Assembly (NCBI GenBank): GCA_041660125.1
Contig: JBAZWY010000003.1
Coordinates: 164,030-228,029, forward strand
DNA: 64,000 nt
Direction: 5' to 3'
Source of the DNA: Lentimicrobiaceae bacterium
Lineage (GTDB): Bacteria; Bacteroidota; Bacteroidia; Bacteroidales; UBA4417
Shown in pieces: positions 43,258-62,652 of the stretch. Numbering within the stretch: the stretch's first letter is position 1; each line of letters starts with the position of its first letter. A model generated the notes under the pieces. That model had not been told where the DNA came from. It ran no database searches and worked only from the letters and a program-made list of their open reading frames with translations. The position numbers and the translations under genes were made by a program.

Positions 43258-43357
43258 AATCCAAGTCCCAAGTCCCAAATCTAAAGAACCAAGACCTACT
43301 CTAAATTCCCTCTTGGAATTTTGAGTTTGGAATTTGGAATTTGGAATTTGGGACTTA
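43258..43357. repeat. Hairpin with tandem-repeat arms (CCAAGTCC / TTTGGAAT octamers)
   Basis: tccaagtcccaagtcccaaatc is followed by tttggaatttggaatttggaatttgggactt. It lies directly downstream of the stop of the 43410..44393 gene. Confidence 0.85.
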
Positions 43358-55776: not shown

Positions 55777-56226
55777 ATGCAAACAATAATTACACAAACC
55801 GATTTAAGAGCGGCCATACTTATGTTAGAAAGCAGGCAGGCTGAAGAAGGTAAATTGCTGAAAGAACAATTTCTTGTTGCAGTTGAAAGTATTAAACCTA
55901 TCAACCTGATTAAAAGCGCTTTTAGCGAAGCAGCTGAATCAACGGATTTACAGGACAACCTGATAAACTCAACAATTGGCATATCGGCCGGATACCTTTC
56001 GAAAGTACTCTTTCAAGGTGTTACAGGCAATCCAATTAAAAAAATTATCGGCACCGCTATAATGTTTGGAATTAAAAACCTGGTTGCAAAAAATCCTGAA
56101 GTCGTCAAATCAGGAGGAAGAGCAATATTTAATCTTATCAGGAATACTTTGAGAGAGAAAAATAATAAAGATCAGAATAACGAAGACTGGAAAACGGTTG
56201 ACCCAAAGTCTGCATCCCGAATATAA
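55777..56226 (+). CDS. Hypothetical protein, third member of the YtxH / Holin-X-like gene set
   Basis: 149 aa. The gene is co-oriented and starts 8 nt after the preceding gene. Confidence 0.55.
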   Translation: MQTIITQTDLRAAILMLESRQAEEGKLLKEQFLVAVESIKPINLIKSAFSEAAESTDLQDNLINSTIGISAGYLSKVLFQGVTGNPIKKIIGTAIMFGIKNLVAKNPEVVKSGGRAIFNLIRNTLREKNNKDQNNEDWKTVDPKSASRI

Positions 56227-56361
56227 TTTTATATCCTATGCTTGATTCATCCCGCGAAAGCGGAACAAGCCAGGGCCGCATGATGTCAGTAGTTTATTGT
56301 TGCGGATATTTATTTGTTTCACTCCTGGTTTAGAGCTACAGTTGTGCAGAAGTTCATCGCT

Positions 56362-57906
56362 TCAGGCTACTCTCATTTCGCTCTTGTTCTCTGAATTCAA
56401 TCTTCTTTCAGAATGATCGTCTAAAGCTTTATGATTCTCTGTTTCTAATCCTTTGAGTTCATTCAGTAGTTCCGTTAAATTAACAGTAGCATACGTCGAT
56501 GTATGGTCCGACATGGCGTATGGGATAATAAGGTCCTTGCCATGAATAATTGAACCGCACGAAAAAATGGCATTAGGTACTGAGCCTTCTCTCTCAGCTT
56601 CATTTGGCATGATCAAAGGGACATTTAACCTTCCGATTTCCTTTTCCGGGTTATCAAGTTCAAATAATGATGCGCTTATAACGTGTCTATTCATCGGGCC
56701 AACCGCGTGTGTTATAACCAGCCAGCCATCTTCTGTCTCAATCGGCGAACCGGCGTTGCCAATTTGTAAAAGTTCCCATGGATATTTAGGCTGCTGTATG
56801 AGTGTTGCTTCGCGCCAGATATTTATAGTATCCGAATAGGCAATAAAATTACTGACTCCATCAACCCGGCAAAGCATGGCATATTTTCCGTTAATTTTCC
56901 TTGGGAACAAGGCCATTCCTTTATTGTGTACAATTTCACCATACATAGGCAGAACCTTGAAATGATAAAAATCGGTAGTCTTAATTAATTTTGGCATAAT
57001 AGTTATCCCATCATTTGCCGTATAGGTAGCATAATACACGGAATCTCCGTTGTCGTCAGTAAATTTAACAAAACGGGCATCTTCAATCCCCTTTTGCTCT
57101 GACTTTGAAATCGGGAATATAACCCTTTCGGAAATGGCCGAATCAATAGAGAAGTCAATTTCATAATGTGAAGAAGCCAGCCACTTAACTTGATTGATAA
57201 GCAATTCCTTTTCTATTGAGTTCGTCTCATTTGCATCCTTCAGACTTCTCATTAACTCGCCAAATGTAAAGGCATCCCCTAATTTGTCCAGAATAAAAGC
57301 AGGTGAAATTGCAGTTTCCGGATCCTGCATCTCAACCAGTTTCTCCTGAAAAATATTTTTATCGTAAACATGACGTTTGATAACATCGGCTTCAGCCAGC
57401 ATCCTGCCAACCGGTTCAACTGTGAGATTATTATTCCTGTCGAGCACACCTGAACGGAAAACGATGGATGAAATGTGCCCTTCGCCTGTAGCCCTGAAAC
57501 TTAAAATAACACGTTTTTCGTCCTTGTTTAATTCAGTCTGATCCGGATCTTCAACAATAGATGGATTGTAGAATGCAGCAGATTCGATGGAATATTCCAT
57601 TGTGAAAAAGGAACCGATCAGTGCTTTTCGCGATGAACTCAGTTCTTTCACATCAATTTCGAGCAGTTTGAATATATCACTGAGTTTTTCAATATGCTTT
57701 TCAAATGTTCGTGTAATATTTCTGTGTCTGGTCGAAAAGTCTCTTAACAGCGGATTTAGTGCATAATTCACTTCATTTTCAGACATTACAAGCACCGTTC
57801 TGATGATTTCAATGCTTCTGTTTTCCGAGGTAAATAAAAAGCGGGGAATGATGCGGGTGGAGTCAGGTGAAAACTGAGTGCCTTTTCTGATAACTTTAAC
57901 GTGCAT
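56362..57906 (-). CDS. GH130-like glycosidase/phosphorylase-fold protein with an ~190-aa N-terminal extension (paralogue B)
   Basis: 514 aa. The C-terminal beta-propeller-type blocks are GIEDARFVKFTDDNG, MALFPRKINGKYAML, NAGSPIETEDGWLVITHAVG and IPYAMSDH. Confidence 0.65.
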   Translation of the reverse strand: MHVKVIRKGTQFSPDSTRIIPRFLFTSENRSIEIIRTVLVMSENEVNYALNPLLRDFSTRHRNITRTFEKHIEKLSDIFKLLEIDVKELSSSRKALIGSFFTMEYSIESAAFYNPSIVEDPDQTELNKDEKRVILSFRATGEGHISSIVFRSGVLDRNNNLTVEPVGRMLAEADVIKRHVYDKNIFQEKLVEMQDPETAISPAFILDKLGDAFTFGELMRSLKDANETNSIEKELLINQVKWLASSHYEIDFSIDSAISERVIFPISKSEQKGIEDARFVKFTDDNGDSVYYATYTANDGITIMPKLIKTTDFYHFKVLPMYGEIVHNKGMALFPRKINGKYAMLCRVDGVSNFIAYSDTINIWREATLIQQPKYPWELLQIGNAGSPIETEDGWLVITHAVGPMNRHVISASLFELDNPEKEIGRLNVPLIMPNEAEREGSVPNAIFSCGSIIHGKDLIIPYAMSDHTSTYATVNLTELLNELKGLETENHKALDDHSERRLNSENKSEMRVA

Positions 57907-58120
57907 TTTAGTAATTGTTTACTTGTATAGTTACATTAATTAATTGCTGTGCATCGGAATAGTAACTACTTTATTTATGAGAACGACAAATATATTACAT
58001 CATTTAGTCGGGATTACACCACCGGTGCGATATTTATGAACCGTTATTGTTTATAAAAAAAATTGTTCTGTTTAAGAAAAATATACAAAATGACTTTTTT
58101 GTAATCTTATGAAGATTATG

Positions 58121-58279
58121 GTTCCGGGTGCCTGGTTCCGGGTGCCTGGTTCCGTGTGCTGGTTCAATACTTTATTCAAGACATTTCTGCTTTCAATCAG
58201 CAACGAGAATACCTGAAAATACAATAAGGGCTATTTATAACAGTCACTGGCACCCGGCACCCTGTACCCGGCATCCTGT
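58121..58279. repeat. Long imperfect hairpin with tandem-repeat arms (14-bp unit GGTTCCGGGTGCCT)
   Basis: The left arm at 58121-58166 contains about 3 units. The right arm at 58246-58279 (cactggcacccggcaccctgtacccggcatcctg) is complementary. It lies just downstream of the stop of 58284..59873. Confidence 0.85.
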
Positions 58280-58283
58280 ATTA

Positions 58284-59873
58284 TTACTTGTTGTTGCCGG
58301 AAGCTTTCAGCACATCAAGCAGTTCCCTGAGATCAACAGTAGCGTAAGTGGATGAATGATCGGACATAGCATACGGTAGAATCAGATCTTCATTATGAAT
58401 AATTGAACCACACGAATAAATTACATTCGGTACATATCCTTCTCTTTCAGTTTCATTTGGTACCATTAAAGGGGACGATAGTCTTCCAATCTCTTTCTCC
58501 GGATTGTCAAGCTCATACAATGCAGCTCCTAAGGTATATTCTCTCATCGAACCTACTGCATGAGTTATAACCAGCCAGCCATCTTCTGTTTCTATCGGCG
58601 AGCCTGCATTGCCGATCTGTACCAGTTCCCACGGGTATTTGGGCTGCTGAAGAATTTTGGCTTCATGCCAGATGTTTATACTATCCGAAAAAGCGATATA
58701 ATTATTTACACCATCAATCCTGCATAGCATGGCGTATTTCCCGTTGATTTTACGGGGAAACAGGGCCATTCCCTTATTTTGGGCTAACTCACCATTAATA
58801 GGTAATATTTTAAAATTATAAAAGTCTTTTGTACTGATCAACTTTGGCATAATAGCCATACCATCATACGCCGTATAAGTGGCATAATAGGTTACTTCGC
58901 CATCATCATCGGTGAATTTTACAAAACGGGCATCTTCAATACCTCTTTGCTCGGTTGCCGATACAGGAAAAATAACCCTTTCGGAAATGGCTGAATCAAT
59001 TGAGAAAGTAATCTCGTAGTGAGAGGAAGCCAGCCACATCATCCGGTTCATAATTTTAATATGATCTTCGGTTAGTTTGGGGTTCTTTCGTGCTATTTCG
59101 AGATTCTTCATTAATTCGCCATAGGTAAAACTATCTTCAAGCTTATCCATGATAAATGCTGGCGAGATATCTTTTCTATGATCCTGCTTTTTGTCAATTT
59201 TATCAATGATAATTGGTGGGATAACATTTGCCTGGCCTGGTTTTTCATCATGTTTATCCAGAATTGCGGGAGAAATCACATTCCCCTGCTCGTTAAGTTC
59301 AGCCAGTTTAGCCTGAAATGCTTTTTTATCGTAAACATTCCGTTTAATTAGATCAGCTTCAGCCAGCATTTTCCCAACAGGTTCAAGGGTGAGGTTGTTA
59401 TTCCGGTCGAGAAGTCCTGAACGGAAAACCACTGATGAGATATGGCCTTCTCCGGTTGCACGGAAACTGAAGATCACTCTTTTTTCATCCTGTCGTGTTT
59501 CTGACTGATCAGGATTTTCAACAACGGAAGGATTGAAAAAAGCAGCGGACTCGATGGAATATTCCATTGTAAAATAAGAGCCGATAAGTGCTTTCTGCGA
59601 AGCGGTGAGATCATCTTCATTCACTTCAATTTTATCAAATATAGGAGCCAGTTTGTTGAAATGCTTCTCAAATATTTTCGAAATATTCCTGTGACGCCTC
59701 GAATACCCTCTCAACAACTGGCTCATGGCAATGTTTACTTCCTTTTCGGGCATTGCCAATACTTTCCTTATTATATCAGCCGATCTTTCATCGTTCACAT
59801 AAAGGAAACGTGCAATTACCCTGCTTGGATCGGGTGAAAAAATAAACTTCTTTCTGGTTATTGCTACTTGCAT
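58284..59873 (-). CDS. GH130-like glycosidase/phosphorylase-fold protein (paralogue A, with an internal triplicated segment)
   Basis: 529 aa. It is collinear with 56362..57906 and shares GIEDARFVKFTDDDG, MALFPRKINGKYAML, NAGSPIETEDGWLVITHAVG and LPYAMSDH. Confidence 0.65.
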   Translation of the reverse strand: MQVAITRKKFIFSPDPSRVIARFLYVNDERSADIIRKVLAMPEKEVNIAMSQLLRGYSRRHRNISKIFEKHFNKLAPIFDKIEVNEDDLTASQKALIGSYFTMEYSIESAAFFNPSVVENPDQSETRQDEKRVIFSFRATGEGHISSVVFRSGLLDRNNNLTLEPVGKMLAEADLIKRNVYDKKAFQAKLAELNEQGNVISPAILDKHDEKPGQANVIPPIIIDKIDKKQDHRKDISPAFIMDKLEDSFTYGELMKNLEIARKNPKLTEDHIKIMNRMMWLASSHYEITFSIDSAISERVIFPVSATEQRGIEDARFVKFTDDDGEVTYYATYTAYDGMAIMPKLISTKDFYNFKILPINGELAQNKGMALFPRKINGKYAMLCRIDGVNNYIAFSDSINIWHEAKILQQPKYPWELVQIGNAGSPIETEDGWLVITHAVGSMREYTLGAALYELDNPEKEIGRLSSPLMVPNETEREGYVPNVIYSCGSIIHNEDLILPYAMSDHSSTYATVDLRELLDVLKASGNNK

Positions 59874-60176
59874 GAGATTTTAGTTTTCATAACGGGATCA
59901 TCGCTTTGCTGATGTTTTTGACCTTTCGGGGTTGAGTGCAATTTTTGCACTTTACCAATTCAAACATTTTAGTTGAACTGAATTCAGTGCTTTTCAATGC
60001 CCTGGCAGGCTCCTCAACGGTTCGGTTATTTTATTTTTTTACGAAAGTAGTCATTCTGATGGATTTCTTTTTAAAAATTAACAATAAATAAGTGTGTATT
60101 CCCGGGGAAAAGTCAATTTATCAGATACTCTCTTAAAATTGAGGGTGGCGATTTGTGGTGAAAAGAATATACTTTA

Positions 60177-61691
60177 TCACACACTCGCACTTTTAAGCCG
60201 CTTCAGGTTTAGTTTTATTATTTTCCTGAAGTGAAAGCCATATATAGTAAAGGTAATGGAGTTTGCAAATAGTCCTGGGCGCTTAAAGATTGTCCAGAAA
60301 AACAGGTTCCAGAATCGAAAGCCTGACCTGTTCCAGAATCCGATATAAAAAAATGATTTTATAAGTGCCAGCATATAAATGAAACTCATGGGATCCCGCT
60401 TACGCTGGGTTTGATTGTATTCCCTTAAAAACGTTTTTACCCGGGCATAATATGCCTTAGGGGAATAGATTGAAGTTAATAACTTTGTGTAACCTTTGAT
60501 AAGTTCTTCTGATTTCATCTTCGGAACGAAGTTTACCGTGAAGTCGGTGTTGTCGCCCGTTGATTGTTTCAATATCCTGTTTTCATGATGCAGCCGTTGG
60601 TATAGTTTTGTATCAGGCAAGGCTGTCAGCAATCCAACCATTGCGGTTACAATCCCACTCCGCTGAATAAAATCAACCTGCGAATCAAAAATGGAAGAAG
60701 GATCGCTGTCAAAACCGACAATAAATCCGCCCGTCACTTCAAGCCCTGCTTTCTGTAAGGTGTTCACACTCCTGAGCAGATCACGGTTCTCATTTTTAAA
60801 CTTGTTGCACTCCTTCAGGCTGTCTTCATTGGTTGTTTCAATTCCTATAAACACTCTGTCAAACCCGGCTTCGGTCATTCGTTTTATCAATTCATAGTCA
60901 TCTGCCAGTTCAATGGATACCTGTGTGTTAAACGAATGCTGAGTCATAAACTGCGATTGCCATCCGGTTATTGCAGGTAATATCTCTTTTTTTAGCTTAG
61001 GTTTATTCCCGATAAAGTTATCGTCAACAAAAAATATTTCCTTGCGCCATCCTGCGCTATGAATGGCTTCCAGTTCACTAACCACTTGTTCCTTGTTTTT
61101 AGTACGCACTTTCCGGCCAAACAAGAGTGTAATATCGCAAAACTCGCAATCGTAAGGACATCCCCGCGAGTATTGAATATTCATAGTTGCATATTTGCGC
61201 ATATCGATAAGCGACCACATTGGAACAGGTGTATCCGCCAGATCTGCAAATTTGTCCGTGGTATAGAGGTGTTTAGGATTACCCTGGTACAGATCCATCA
61301 GGAATTCAGGCAAAGTCAGCTCAGCTTCGTTCAGCACCAGGTAGTCAACCTCTCCATACTCCTCAAAGTCAGATGTAAACAGCGGTCCGCCGGCAATAAT
61401 TTTTTTATTCTTTGCCTTGCACCTGCGAATGATCTCCCAGGTTGATTTTCGTTGAACATTCATAGCGCTGATCAGCACATAATCAGCCCGGTTTAACAGT
61501 TTTTCGTCAAGTTTTTCAACATTCAGATCCACTAATTTAAGTTCCCAATCGGAAGGCAGCATGGATGCTACCGTCAGAAGACCCAATGGGGGAAGGGCCG
61601 CTTTCCGGTGAATAAACTTCAGGGCATATTTAAAACTCCAGAAAGTTTCGGGGTACTCAGGATATATTAAAAGGGCATTTTTCATCGCCAT
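60177..61691 (-). CDS. B12-binding-domain radical SAM protein (DUF4070-type C-terminus)
   Basis: 504 aa. The N-terminal cobalamin-binding-like Rossmann region is LIYPEYP...PPLGLLTVASML. The radical SAM cluster motif is YSRGCPYDCEFCD. A hydrophobic C-terminal segment follows. Confidence 0.78.
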   Translation of the reverse strand: MAMKNALLIYPEYPETFWSFKYALKFIHRKAALPPLGLLTVASMLPSDWELKLVDLNVEKLDEKLLNRADYVLISAMNVQRKSTWEIIRRCKAKNKKIIAGGPLFTSDFEEYGEVDYLVLNEAELTLPEFLMDLYQGNPKHLYTTDKFADLADTPVPMWSLIDMRKYATMNIQYSRGCPYDCEFCDITLLFGRKVRTKNKEQVVSELEAIHSAGWRKEIFFVDDNFIGNKPKLKKEILPAITGWQSQFMTQHSFNTQVSIELADDYELIKRMTEAGFDRVFIGIETTNEDSLKECNKFKNENRDLLRSVNTLQKAGLEVTGGFIVGFDSDPSSIFDSQVDFIQRSGIVTAMVGLLTALPDTKLYQRLHHENRILKQSTGDNTDFTVNFVPKMKSEELIKGYTKLLTSIYSPKAYYARVKTFLREYNQTQRKRDPMSFIYMLALIKSFFYIGFWNRSGFRFWNLFFWTIFKRPGLFANSITFTIYGFHFRKIIKLNLKRLKSASV

Positions 61692-61776
61692 TGCTCTATA
61701 TACAGCAGCAGGTAAGGGATTTATCCGCGATTTCAGGACTTATTTATACCTCTCTTAAGAGTATAATAAATTTGAA

Positions 61777-61843
61777 TAAAATTACTGCTTTCAGACCTGT
61801 AATTTTTTATATAATTTATGATAAAAGTTACATAATTCACACA
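61777..61843 (-). promoter_or_regulatory. Island promoter module P9 (most degenerate proximal repeat)
   Basis: The minus strand reads TGTGTGAATTATGTAAC-N12-TTATATAAAAA-N19-TAATTTTA. It lies about 85 nt upstream of the start at 61691. Confidence 0.7.
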
Positions 61844-61997
61844 TTTTGCTATATTTTAATACACCTCAATCAGTCACTTCTCCGTTAGAGCCTGGATATT
61901 TTATTATTATATAGCCCGGTAACAATAATTTACAGTATTTACCATGGAATGTTTCTGTGCAAACATTACAAAGCATTATAGGAACGCTGATTTATAA

Positions 61998-62064
61998 GGT
62001 GTGAATAATGTAACTTATTTATGGAATTATGTAATGCATAGTGGAAGTGCCGGGTATATCTTTG
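61998..62064 (+). promoter_or_regulatory. Island promoter module P10, divergent from P9
   Basis: Sequence is GGTGTGAATAATGTAAC-N12-TTATGTAATGC-N19-TATCTTTG. Confidence 0.78.
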
Positions 62065-62146
62065 TGCCTGTAATAGTTTACTACTTAAACAAGATCGAAT
62101 ATGATAAGGACTATTATAAAAAACCAAATTTTAAAAACTTAGAGTC

Positions 62147-62302
62147 ATGGGAAATCTACTTTACATCATCGCGGTAATCCTGGTAATCGCCTGGGCGATC
62201 GGATTTTTTGCATACAGCACCGGAGGCATCATTCATATACTGCTTGTTATAGCAATAATTGCAGTAATATTCAGAGTAATCCAGGGCAGGAGAATATTGT
62301 AA
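62147..62302 (+). CDS. lmo0937-family small membrane protein (51 aa, below the ORF-track cutoff)
   Basis: Manual translation gives MGNLLYIIAVILVIAWAIGFFAYSTGGIIHILLVIAIIAVIFRVIQGRRIL. It is the first ORF after P10. Confidence 0.75.
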   Translation: MGNLLYIIAVILVIAWAIGFFAYSTGGIIHILLVIAIIAVIFRVIQGRRIL

Positions 62303-62325
62303 ATCAAATTTTTAAAACACTTAAT

Positions 62326-62652
62326 ATGAAAAGAATCACATTTGTTGTGATGGCAATGTTCTTGTCGTTAGCATTTTACCCGGGTCAGGCAAATGCTGCA
62401 ACTCTAAAAGAAGCTACACCATCATCAATAGGTGCTACAAATCCTGCTGACGCAGCCAAAGTCAAAGTATTAGAACTAAGGCTAAACGAAATAAACGACA
62501 TGGACAAATCAGGTCTGAAGTCGTCAGAAAAACGCGAATTGCGAAAAGAAGTCCGTTCAATAAAACAGCAACTTCATGAAATGGGCGGTTATGTCTATGT
62601 TTCAGTCGGAACTGTTCTTCTTATCGTTTTATTGCTAATCATTTTATTATAA
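62326..62652 (+). CDS. Secreted, C-terminally anchored coiled-coil protein (paralogue of 29247..29582)
   Basis: 108 aa with a signal peptide. It shares NDMDKSGLKSSEKRELRKEVRSIKQQL and the tail GGYVYVSVGTVLLIVLLLIILL with the 29247 gene. Confidence 0.72.
   Translation: MKRITFVVMAMFLSLAFYPGQANAATLKEATPSSIGATNPADAAKVKVLELRLNEINDMDKSGLKSSEKRELRKEVRSIKQQLHEMGGYVYVSVGTVLLIVLLLIILL

Follow-up and report, generated by a model that had tools for sequence, protein, structure and literature searches.

The 64,000-nucleotide window analysed here (contig JBAZWY010000003.1 of assembly GCA_041660125.1, positions 164,030 to 228,029) comes from a metagenome-assembled genome of a Lentimicrobiaceae bacterium, a member of the Bacteroidales recovered from groundwater. 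Between positions 56,362 and 61,843 it carries three genes downstream of one copy of a recurrent promoter module: one for a cobalamin-binding radical SAM (rSAM) protein and two for tandem paralogues of the GH130 family, which we call GHa and GHb (Table 1; related loci are designated by L numbers). An earlier reading of the sequence (the original prediction) had described three minus-strand open reading frames (ORFs) here, and the ORF listing gives the same three, separated by gaps of exactly 303 and 377 bp. Two independent metagenome data sets each contain single contigs that run across the junction between the rSAM gene and GHa; hence, this arrangement is not a mis-assembly. With a probability of about 0.6, we interpret GHa and GHb as cytoplasmic members of a large, previously uncharacterised long-form clade of GH130, which acts together with GT4, PIG-L and (α/α)6 proteins on an internal glycoside, with the rSAM protein being peripheral to this set.

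Table 1. Features of the locus, in window coordinates
Feature	Position	Strand	Remarks
rSAM gene	60177-61691	minus	504 aa; B12-binding, Radical_SAM and DUF4070 domains (ORF listing, Pfam)
Spacer between rSAM gene and GHa	59874-60176	minus	303 bp; blocks conserved in L019 and L024
GHa	58284-59873	minus	long-form GH130, slow-evolving type, 529 aa
GHa N-terminal domain	59574-59873	minus	
GHa blade 1 (predicted)	59379-59573	minus	
GHa insertion	58980-59378	minus	includes the triplicated ~16-aa segment
GHa blades 2-5	58305-58979	minus	
Long imperfect hairpin	58110-58275	minus	directly after the GHa stop codon
GHb	56362-57906	minus	long-form GH130, fast-evolving paralogue type, 514 aa
GHb N-terminal domain	57607-57906	minus	
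GHb blade 1 (predicted)	57412-57606	minus	
GHb insertion	57127-57411	minus	
GHb blades 2-5	56452-57126	minus	
GHb C-terminal tail	56365-56451	minus	29 aa
Promoter module P9	61790-61843	minus	upstream of the rSAM gene; distal motif TGTGTGAATTATGTAAC at 61827-61843

The long-form GH130 proteins

Profile searches bear out the GH130 assignment made in the original prediction: PF04041 recovers GHa with 107.9 and GHb with 92.9 bits against a cut-off of 26 bits (all Pfam cut-offs given here are the curated gathering scores), the match being restricted to profile positions 84-320 and to the C-terminal ~230 residues of the two proteins. By sequence, the best solved structure for GHa is the 1,2-β-oligomannan phosphorylase 9fj8 (E 8e-34). 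We then turned to an AlphaFold model of GHb, which reached a pLDDT of 89 and a pTM of 0.84 when run with a 77-sequence alignment, as against a pLDDT of 32 in a single-sequence run. The best Foldseek matches of this model were all GH130 structures, headed by Teth514_1788 (9gph_A; E 1.5e-20) with a TM-score of 0.78, calculated for the target length of 302 residues from an alignment of 384 columns. In the model the entire propeller is matched over approximately residues 100-485, with about 90 query residues inserted, and GHa and GHb are each predicted to form a complete five-bladed propeller.

Sequence profiles (whole-profile hhalign and hmmsearch against PDB) align residues 265-479 to target positions 82-294, i.e. 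to blades 2-5 only. They failed to bridge an insertion that precedes these blades, and blade 1 could be placed only with a cut-out of residues 95-170. With this cut-out, hhalign positions residues 103-166, comprising FTMEYSIESAAF and FRATGEGHISS, on blade 1 of the short GH130s from the same loci; the match is weak (E 0.002) and topologically consistent, pairing FNPS with HNAA and FRATGEGH with FRSHLxNG. This bears on the earlier proposal that the first ~190 residues are a novel extension outside the canonical fold. It stands for residues 1 to ~100, which are indeed extra, whereas FTMEYSIESAAF and FRATGEGHISS, two of the four blocks listed in its support and about half of the region, would be part of the canonical blade 1. 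The true additions to the GH130 core are accordingly predicted from the model to be residues 1 to ~100 and an insertion at residues ~165-260, between blades 1 and 2.

The first of these additions is a domain of ~100 residues with a β-hairpin and five helices, in which R7, R18, R22, R55 and R60-H61-R62 are invariant. The second is helical and of variable length (95-130 residues). Profile searches with the N-terminal 100 residues and with the insertion against Pfam and the PDB sequences returned nothing better than E 0.02, which supports the earlier view of the N-terminal region as novel for part of its length. The two paralogues share 64% identity; GHa is expanded by 38 residues and has a triplicated ~16-residue segment (59139-59282) that lies within the blade 1-2 insertion. 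Since GHa forms of 529-533 residues are common among the relatives while the 490-residue forms lack the triplicated segment, the latter reflects long-standing length variation in the lid-like insertion rather than recent slippage. The clade as a whole is large: at least 8000 homologues of the same length were scored, and the N-terminal domain falls into 1217 clusters at 50% identity, its position being always N-terminal. No signal peptide could be read from the sequence of either GHa or GHb.

To place these proteins functionally, we transferred residue roles from the literature (PMC7660257 Table 2; PMC12814180) via profile alignments, and counted conservation over A1, a 77-sequence alignment of long GH130s. 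The proton donor Asp276 and the phosphate-binding Arg347 are each found in 74 of the 77 sequences and the phosphate-binding His400 in 73, all three being present in both window proteins. The residues of the +1 subsite are similarly maintained, namely Glu275 (76/77), Lys329 (74/77), Asp467 (75/77) and Arg138 (76/77, a mapping that hinges on the weak blade-1 alignment). GHa has the family consensus residue at every catalytic and phosphate-binding position. The combination of a single catalytic Asp donor with a phosphate-binding Arg/His pair is that which distinguishes the GH130 phosphorylases from the hydrolases (PMC7660257), and the Arg/Glu/Lys/Asp pattern of the +1 subsite, also present here, is the one that Li et al. 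assign to β-1,2 phosphorylases (PMC7660257 Table 2). The conserved proton donor, phosphate and +1 residues therefore predict a cytoplasmic β-mannoside phosphorylase or mannose 1-phosphate (Man-1-P)-dependent synthase. Its reaction would be the reversible one β-Man-(1→2)-X + Pi ↔ α-Man-1-phosphate + X, with X as the acceptor. The N-terminal domain and the insertion would close over the acceptor subsites and select one particular small, possibly anionic, X. With the NCBIfam equivalogs for β-1,2-mannobiose phosphorylases (NF050092 and NF052550) the proteins score 119-145 bits, far from the cut-offs of 450-550, and they are thus GH130 members outside the characterised isofunctional groups.

A maximum-likelihood tree unites the window GHb and the second copies found in L007, L015 and L016 as a well-supported monophyletic clade, which is sister to the GHa type and has branches several-fold longer, corresponding to a 3-5 times faster evolution; GHa, for its part, is 95-97% identical to its orthologue in L006. 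The second copy always lies in tandem downstream of the first, and the duplication is an old one within a single Bacteroidales group. The GHb type is further characterised by a C-terminal tail of ~28 residues and by the change, beside the phosphate site, of PMREY to PM(N/G/K)(R/K)(H/C), which in the window GHb reads PMNRH. In the GHb-type proteins of L007 (1645-3186) and L016 (11768-13306) the phosphate-binding His itself is replaced by Gln or Asn (ITQAVG, ITNAIG), suggesting that the second copy is evolving away from the chemistry of a phosphorylase, while the window GHb keeps His400 and shows the substitution Y442S.

These features raise the alternative that GHb, perhaps along with all of the long clade, has no catalytic role as a phosphorylase and is instead a propeller that binds sugars or regulates, or a non-catalytic subunit of a partner enzyme. 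The accelerated evolution of the GHb type, the altered PMREY segment, the loss of the phosphate-binding His in two relatives and Y442S in the window copy all speak in its favour. Against it, the window copy retains Asp276, Arg347, His400, Glu275, Lys329 and Asp467, and the GHa type is strongly constrained at every catalytic position; this alternative therefore applies at most to GHb, and we regard it as quite unlikely overall. We accordingly retain the phosphorylase or synthase prediction for the long form, with GHb as a faster-evolving duplicate, changed next to the phosphate site, whose chemistry may be altered or which may serve as a partner subunit.

Conserved partners and the promoter module

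We examined the gene neighbourhoods of 80 loci with a long GH130, drawn from Bacteroidota, Ignavibacteriota and Spirochaetota, by clustering their ORFs. The most frequent neighbour is a GT4 glycosyltransferase of ~745-785 residues fused to an (α/α)6-like domain, which is seen in 49 of the 80 loci. It is followed by a convergent GT4 of 337 residues immediately downstream (28 loci), a small AraC-type regulator (20), a canonical (short) GH130 of 309 residues (about 16), a GH100/GDE_C/MGH1-like protein of 390 residues and a second GT4 of 380 residues (13 each), and a PIG-L deacetylase (12). Neither a SusC/SusD pair nor a sugar transporter nor a secreted mannanase is found among the recurrent neighbour clusters of these loci, and the same holds for a cysteine ligase or any other gene of a thiol pathway.

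This composition bears on the possibility that the long GH130s are catabolic, phosphorolysing imported environmental β-mannosides such as yeast or plant mannan. All bacterial GH130 phosphorylases characterised so far have been given catabolic or salvage roles (PMC8950772; PMC4264767), which speaks for such a function. However, the recurrent neighbours are glycosyltransferases and a deacetylase rather than uptake or mannan-degrading systems, GHa and GHb lack a signal peptide, and the genes are located in stress-module islands, so that we consider a catabolic role very unlikely. The company of glycosyltransferases instead of uptake systems points to an internal β-mannoside.

An order-level sample of 121 genomes, in which the Fisher statistics ignore phylogeny, provided a second view of the association. 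Here, 31 genomes have the long GH130 and 35 have the GT4-(α/α)6 fusion. Of the 31 with a long GH130, 24 carry both (p = 4e-11), and in 20 of these 24 the two genes are at most 10 kb apart. The conserved partner of the long GH130 is thus the GT4-(α/α)6 fusion and not the rSAM protein. Two types of the fusion are seen in this sample, one of ~785 residues with 57-73% identity to the copy in the present genome and one of ~745-760 residues with 34-36%. Genomes G067 and G111 have two copies each, those of G111 being one of each type.

In the present genome the fusion (786 aa; C3:228367-230724, equivalent to window positions 64338-66695 and to L099:2368-4728) starts 338 bp past the end of the window, after an AI-2E permease gene, and is co-directional with the P10, lmo0937-like and AI-2E permease genes. 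Behind the fusion gene comes another copy of the module, at C3:230823, and the genes found downstream are an OmpA-like gene, that of the small AraC-type regulator (C3:232418-232963) and those of a hybrid kinase/response-regulator pair. On another contig, C25, an operon at 42687-39393 encodes a PIG-L deacetylase, a 380-aa GT4 and a 398-aa GH100/GDE_C-like (α/α)6 protein, and lies directly behind a module copy at 43350 (minus strand) and an 84-aa gene. This is a second island of the module, and it holds the rest of the conserved gene set.

The promoter module itself was correctly recognised in the original prediction: its motif TGTGTGAATNNTGTAAC occurs on the minus strand at 61827-61843, and the window holds 10 copies where 0.15 would be expected. 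The genome has 21 strict copies, 10 of them on the contig of the window and four on C25. At the present locus the rSAM start codon (ATG) is 152 nt downstream of the start of the motif. The proposed link of these genes to a stress/envelope promoter module gains comparative support from nine loci, one of them this genome's own, in which the fusion belongs to a run of co-directional genes with the module at its head; among these are runs in which the module is followed by a cupin, the fusion, a short GH130 and a GT4. A long GH130 lies directly downstream of the module in L013, and the module is also found upstream of the rSAM orthologues of L015, L101, L109, L110, L112 and L115 (6-7 of 23 rSAM loci).

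Within the locus, the two gaps were inspected for signals that might bear on the operon structure. In the spacer between the rSAM gene and GHa, a three-way DNA alignment with L019 and L024 revealed a conserved block, TACTTTCG, at 60042-60049. The -7 box of Bacteroidota has the consensus TAnnTTTG, from which the block departs by a single mismatch, making it a candidate internal promoter. A scan of 55800-62400 with Rfam at E ≤ 1 detected no riboswitch or other RNA family. Scans for σ70 promoters and intrinsic terminators, which are uninformative for Bacteroidota, stayed at background level, with no terminator scored in either gap.

The large hairpin noted earlier in the 377-bp gap is present (fold of -53 kcal/mol, z = -2.3), with arms made of GGTGCCG-like repeats. 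A hairpin with a different arm sequence occurs in L006, whereas L019 and L007 have none, and consensus folding of the inter-paralogue hairpin over four relatives, two of which lack the element, gave no shared structure. A second strain has a 14-nt deletion polymorphism at 58121. Being confined to the window lineage and L006 and variable between strains, the hairpin is therefore not a conserved regulatory feature. Hairpins with tandem GGTGCCG- or GTGCTBAGCAC-like arm repeats are seen at different intergenic sites (window 58110-58275; L006:6659-6790), and such hairpins may be small mobile or repeat-prone elements.

The radical SAM gene

The first gene of the locus is as originally annotated. It has the CPYDCEFC motif and matches B12-binding (52.4 bits, cut-off 32.1), Radical_SAM (70.2, cut-off 29.5) and DUF4070 (123, cut-off 22), and its product is predicted to be a class-B, i.e. 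cobalamin-binding, radical SAM protein. Its scores with the NCBIfam rSAM equivalogs (PhpK, HpnJ, BchE, HpnR, AprD4 and others) are all far below the cut-offs, the best being 94 bits against 600 for the PhpK family, followed by HpnJ (80/578), BchE (76/481) and HpnR (60/650), and its closest solved relatives, AprD4 and OxsB, are reached only at E 5e-11 to 1e-6. Homologues that are 58-62% identical extend across Nitrospirota, Glassbacteria and Bacteroidota. In the three contexts from other phyla that were examined, the gene stands alone between long spacers, and its neighbours differ from one context to the next.

The original prediction grouped this protein and the two GH130s as one enzyme set. 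Read as a dedicated pathway, the set would have the B12-dependent rSAM carry out a radical modification, for instance a C-methylation, on the glycoside made or cleaved by the GH130s. Class-B rSAM enzymes that methylate sugars are established, and several contexts are in line with such a role: the window, L010 and L024 all have the rSAM gene directly upstream of a long GH130, the gene adjoins the fusion in L015, L018, L109 and L110, and it is enriched in the genomes with a long GH130 or the fusion (odds ratios of ~6.5 and p ~3e-4, with phylogeny ignored). In L101, L110 and L049 it is part of AraC-rSAM-cupin-(kinase)-fusion runs, the distance to the fusion in L101 being 1.8 kb. Nevertheless, of the 80 long-GH130 loci, 75 have no rSAM gene. 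Only two of them, L010 and L024, have the rSAM gene directly upstream of a long GH130, and three more have it within 10 kb; the trio is not a conserved unit, the conserved partners being the GT4s, PIG-L and (α/α)6 proteins. Conversely, most rSAM loci are without the cluster. In 10 of 17 Bacteroidales loci the gene instead follows a LytTR-type membrane regulator, two of these loci also having a fatty-acid desaturase. In the latter two, L103 (8072-10775) and L106, the order is LytTR regulator, rSAM and then a membrane desaturase (a His-box protein), which hints at a lipid-related role for rSAM.

The relatives of the window also illuminate the history of the arrangement. Both L010 and L024 show the order AraC|rSAM-GH130L, and L024 is the sister of the window GHa and L006 in the tree. 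L006, the closest relative (86-88% DNA identity), has an AraC-type gene in the place of rSAM, and L019 (2880-3340) retains the whole spacer but no more than the final ~95 nt of the rSAM gene, a clean deletion scar. An insertion of rSAM together with P9 between the AraC gene and GHa was considered and rejected in favour of differential loss, on account of the gene order in L024 and L010 and the 3' remnant in L019. Most probably, the ancestor of the GHa subclade had the arrangement AraC|rSAM-GH130L and rSAM was then lost repeatedly, which makes it an occasional companion that shares the regulon and not a required partner. Close relatives have deleted rSAM and keep both GH130 genes intact; together with the stand-alone position of the gene in the three contexts from other phyla, this leaves the single-pathway proposal unlikely.

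A proposed internal glycoside and comparison with known systems

Returning to the preferred reading, in which the long GH130 and its GT4, PIG-L and (α/α)6 partners form the core, we propose that the gene set together builds and recycles an internal mannose-containing, and probably glucosamine-containing, glycoside or short glycan. The acceptor X would most likely be made by the GT4-(α/α)6 fusion, the PIG-L/GT4 pair and the (α/α)6 hydrolase. In this genome the genes of the set stand in three separate places, every one of them behind a copy of the same stress/envelope promoter module, and the product is therefore expected to be made or mobilised under the inducing condition of that regulon. The rSAM protein would not belong to the core: its gene is widely conserved, in one Bacteroidales lineage probably lay ancestrally between a small AraC-type regulator gene and the long GH130, and shares the regulon.

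Several points weigh against this reading. The residue of Uhgb_MS that contacts the phosphate pair, Arg242, corresponds to Gln381 in 71 of the 77 long GH130s, so that the donor site is not identical to that of the characterised enzymes. The substrate, linkage and reaction direction are predicted from residue patterns, the lid role of the two additions is deduced from topology, and the placement of blade 1 (~residues 100-165) relies on a predicted structure and a profile match at E 0.002. Kinship among the sampled genomes might contribute to the co-occurrence of the long GH130 and the fusion. As for the rSAM gene, it adjoins the fusion or a long GH130 in four of the 20 rSAM genomes of the order-level sample, as well as in L010, L015, L018, L024 and L049, which is above chance, and it may have a functional link to the set in some lineages. 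Finally, a search for sequencing runs containing this sequence found DNA metagenome runs only and no RNA runs, which bears on both module-driven expression and the operon structure.

A bolder version of the proposal is conceivable, in which the gene set makes an undescribed cytoplasmic β-mannosylated, glucosamine-containing glycoside or short reserve glycan that serves as the stress-protective solute or carbon buffer of the Bacteroidota stress regulon with the TGTGTGAAT...TGTAAC module, phosphate controls the long GH130 as a valve that stands between synthesis and recovery of Man-1-P, and the rSAM protein adds a radical (C-methyl) decoration in some lineages. We see it as improbable in this full form.

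Neither the long form nor the gene set is the subject of any paper that the literature search brought up (GH130 with rSAM, N-terminal extension, GT4/LmbE and compatible solutes), and the earlier statement that no described pathway combines these families is upheld by it. In the literature the GH130s figure almost without exception as enzymes of a single module, with dietary or host mannosides as the substrates to be degraded (PMC7660257). Among environmental Bacteroidota, Ignavibacteriota and Spirochaetota the long form is very widespread, and it could serve as a catalyst for making β-mannosides from Man-1-P. Its repeated position behind a rigid promoter module offers a handle on both the inducing condition and the product. 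Thus, the more interesting object at this locus is the long GH130 with its GT4/PIG-L/(α/α)6 partners behind a stress promoter module, while the rSAM protein, as a class-B enzyme conserved at ~60% identity across phyla, presents a separate puzzle.

The parallels to known systems differ between the components. The rSAM protein shares the B12-binding, radical SAM and DUF4070 architecture with HpnP, HpnR and HpnJ, DUF4070 having been noted in HpnP; unlike HpnJ and HpnR, it scores far under the respective equivalog cut-offs and no hopanoid genes are seen nearby. The pairing of PIG-L with the 380-aa GT4 recalls MshA/MshB and BshA/BshB, in which a GT4 and a PIG-L/LmbE deacetylase make GlcN-α-X cores, and the GT4 has weak MshA/BshA matches. 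It differs in that the GT4 attains 58 bits against an equivalog cut-off of 462, and in the lack of thiol-pathway genes among the recurrent neighbours.

By both sequence (E 8e-34 with the single sequence, 7e-44 with the profile) and fold (TM-score 0.78), GHa and GHb are closest to Teth514_1788 and Teth514_1789 of Thermoanaerobacter sp. X-514, which are β-1,2-oligomannan and β-1,2-mannobiose phosphorylases (9fj8, 9gph, 7fip). The proton donor, the phosphate-binding Arg/His, the Glu/Lys markers of β-1,2 specificity and the absence of a signal peptide are common to both. In contrast to the window proteins, with their N-terminal domain and insertion, the Teth514 enzymes are single-domain proteins of ~300 residues; the identity is ~21% over the structural alignment, and the Arg of WESARVG is a Gln in the window family. 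Their genes are found in an ABC-transporter/GDP-mannose salvage cluster, whereas the window family lies among GT4 and PIG-L genes.

The GH130_4 enzymes Uhgb_MS and Lin0857 offer a parallel to the insertion. These β-1,2-mannoside phosphorylases, which have a weak GDP-Man transferase activity, possess an additional loop, formed by residues 53-100, which separates the blade-1 Arg from the catalytic Glu-Asp pair and acts as a lid that limits product length and caps the acceptor subsites (PMC12814180). The insertion of the window proteins occupies the same topological position; the lid has 48 residues in GH130_4 as against 95-130 helical, variable ones here, GH130_4 is without the N-terminal domain, and the window proteins reach NCBIfam equivalog scores of 135-145 bits (cut-off 550).

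At the level of the whole system, mannogen of Leishmania involves a different family (the MTP proteins, GT108, GH130-related five-bladed propellers) in another kingdom, there is no sign of a mannan polymer here, and the GT4 fusion and PIG-L are without a counterpart in that system. Mannogen is nonetheless the closest functional analogy for an internal as opposed to a dietary substrate: an internal β-1,2-mannoside pool that propeller enzymes of this fold both build and phosphorolyse, and that is used under stress.

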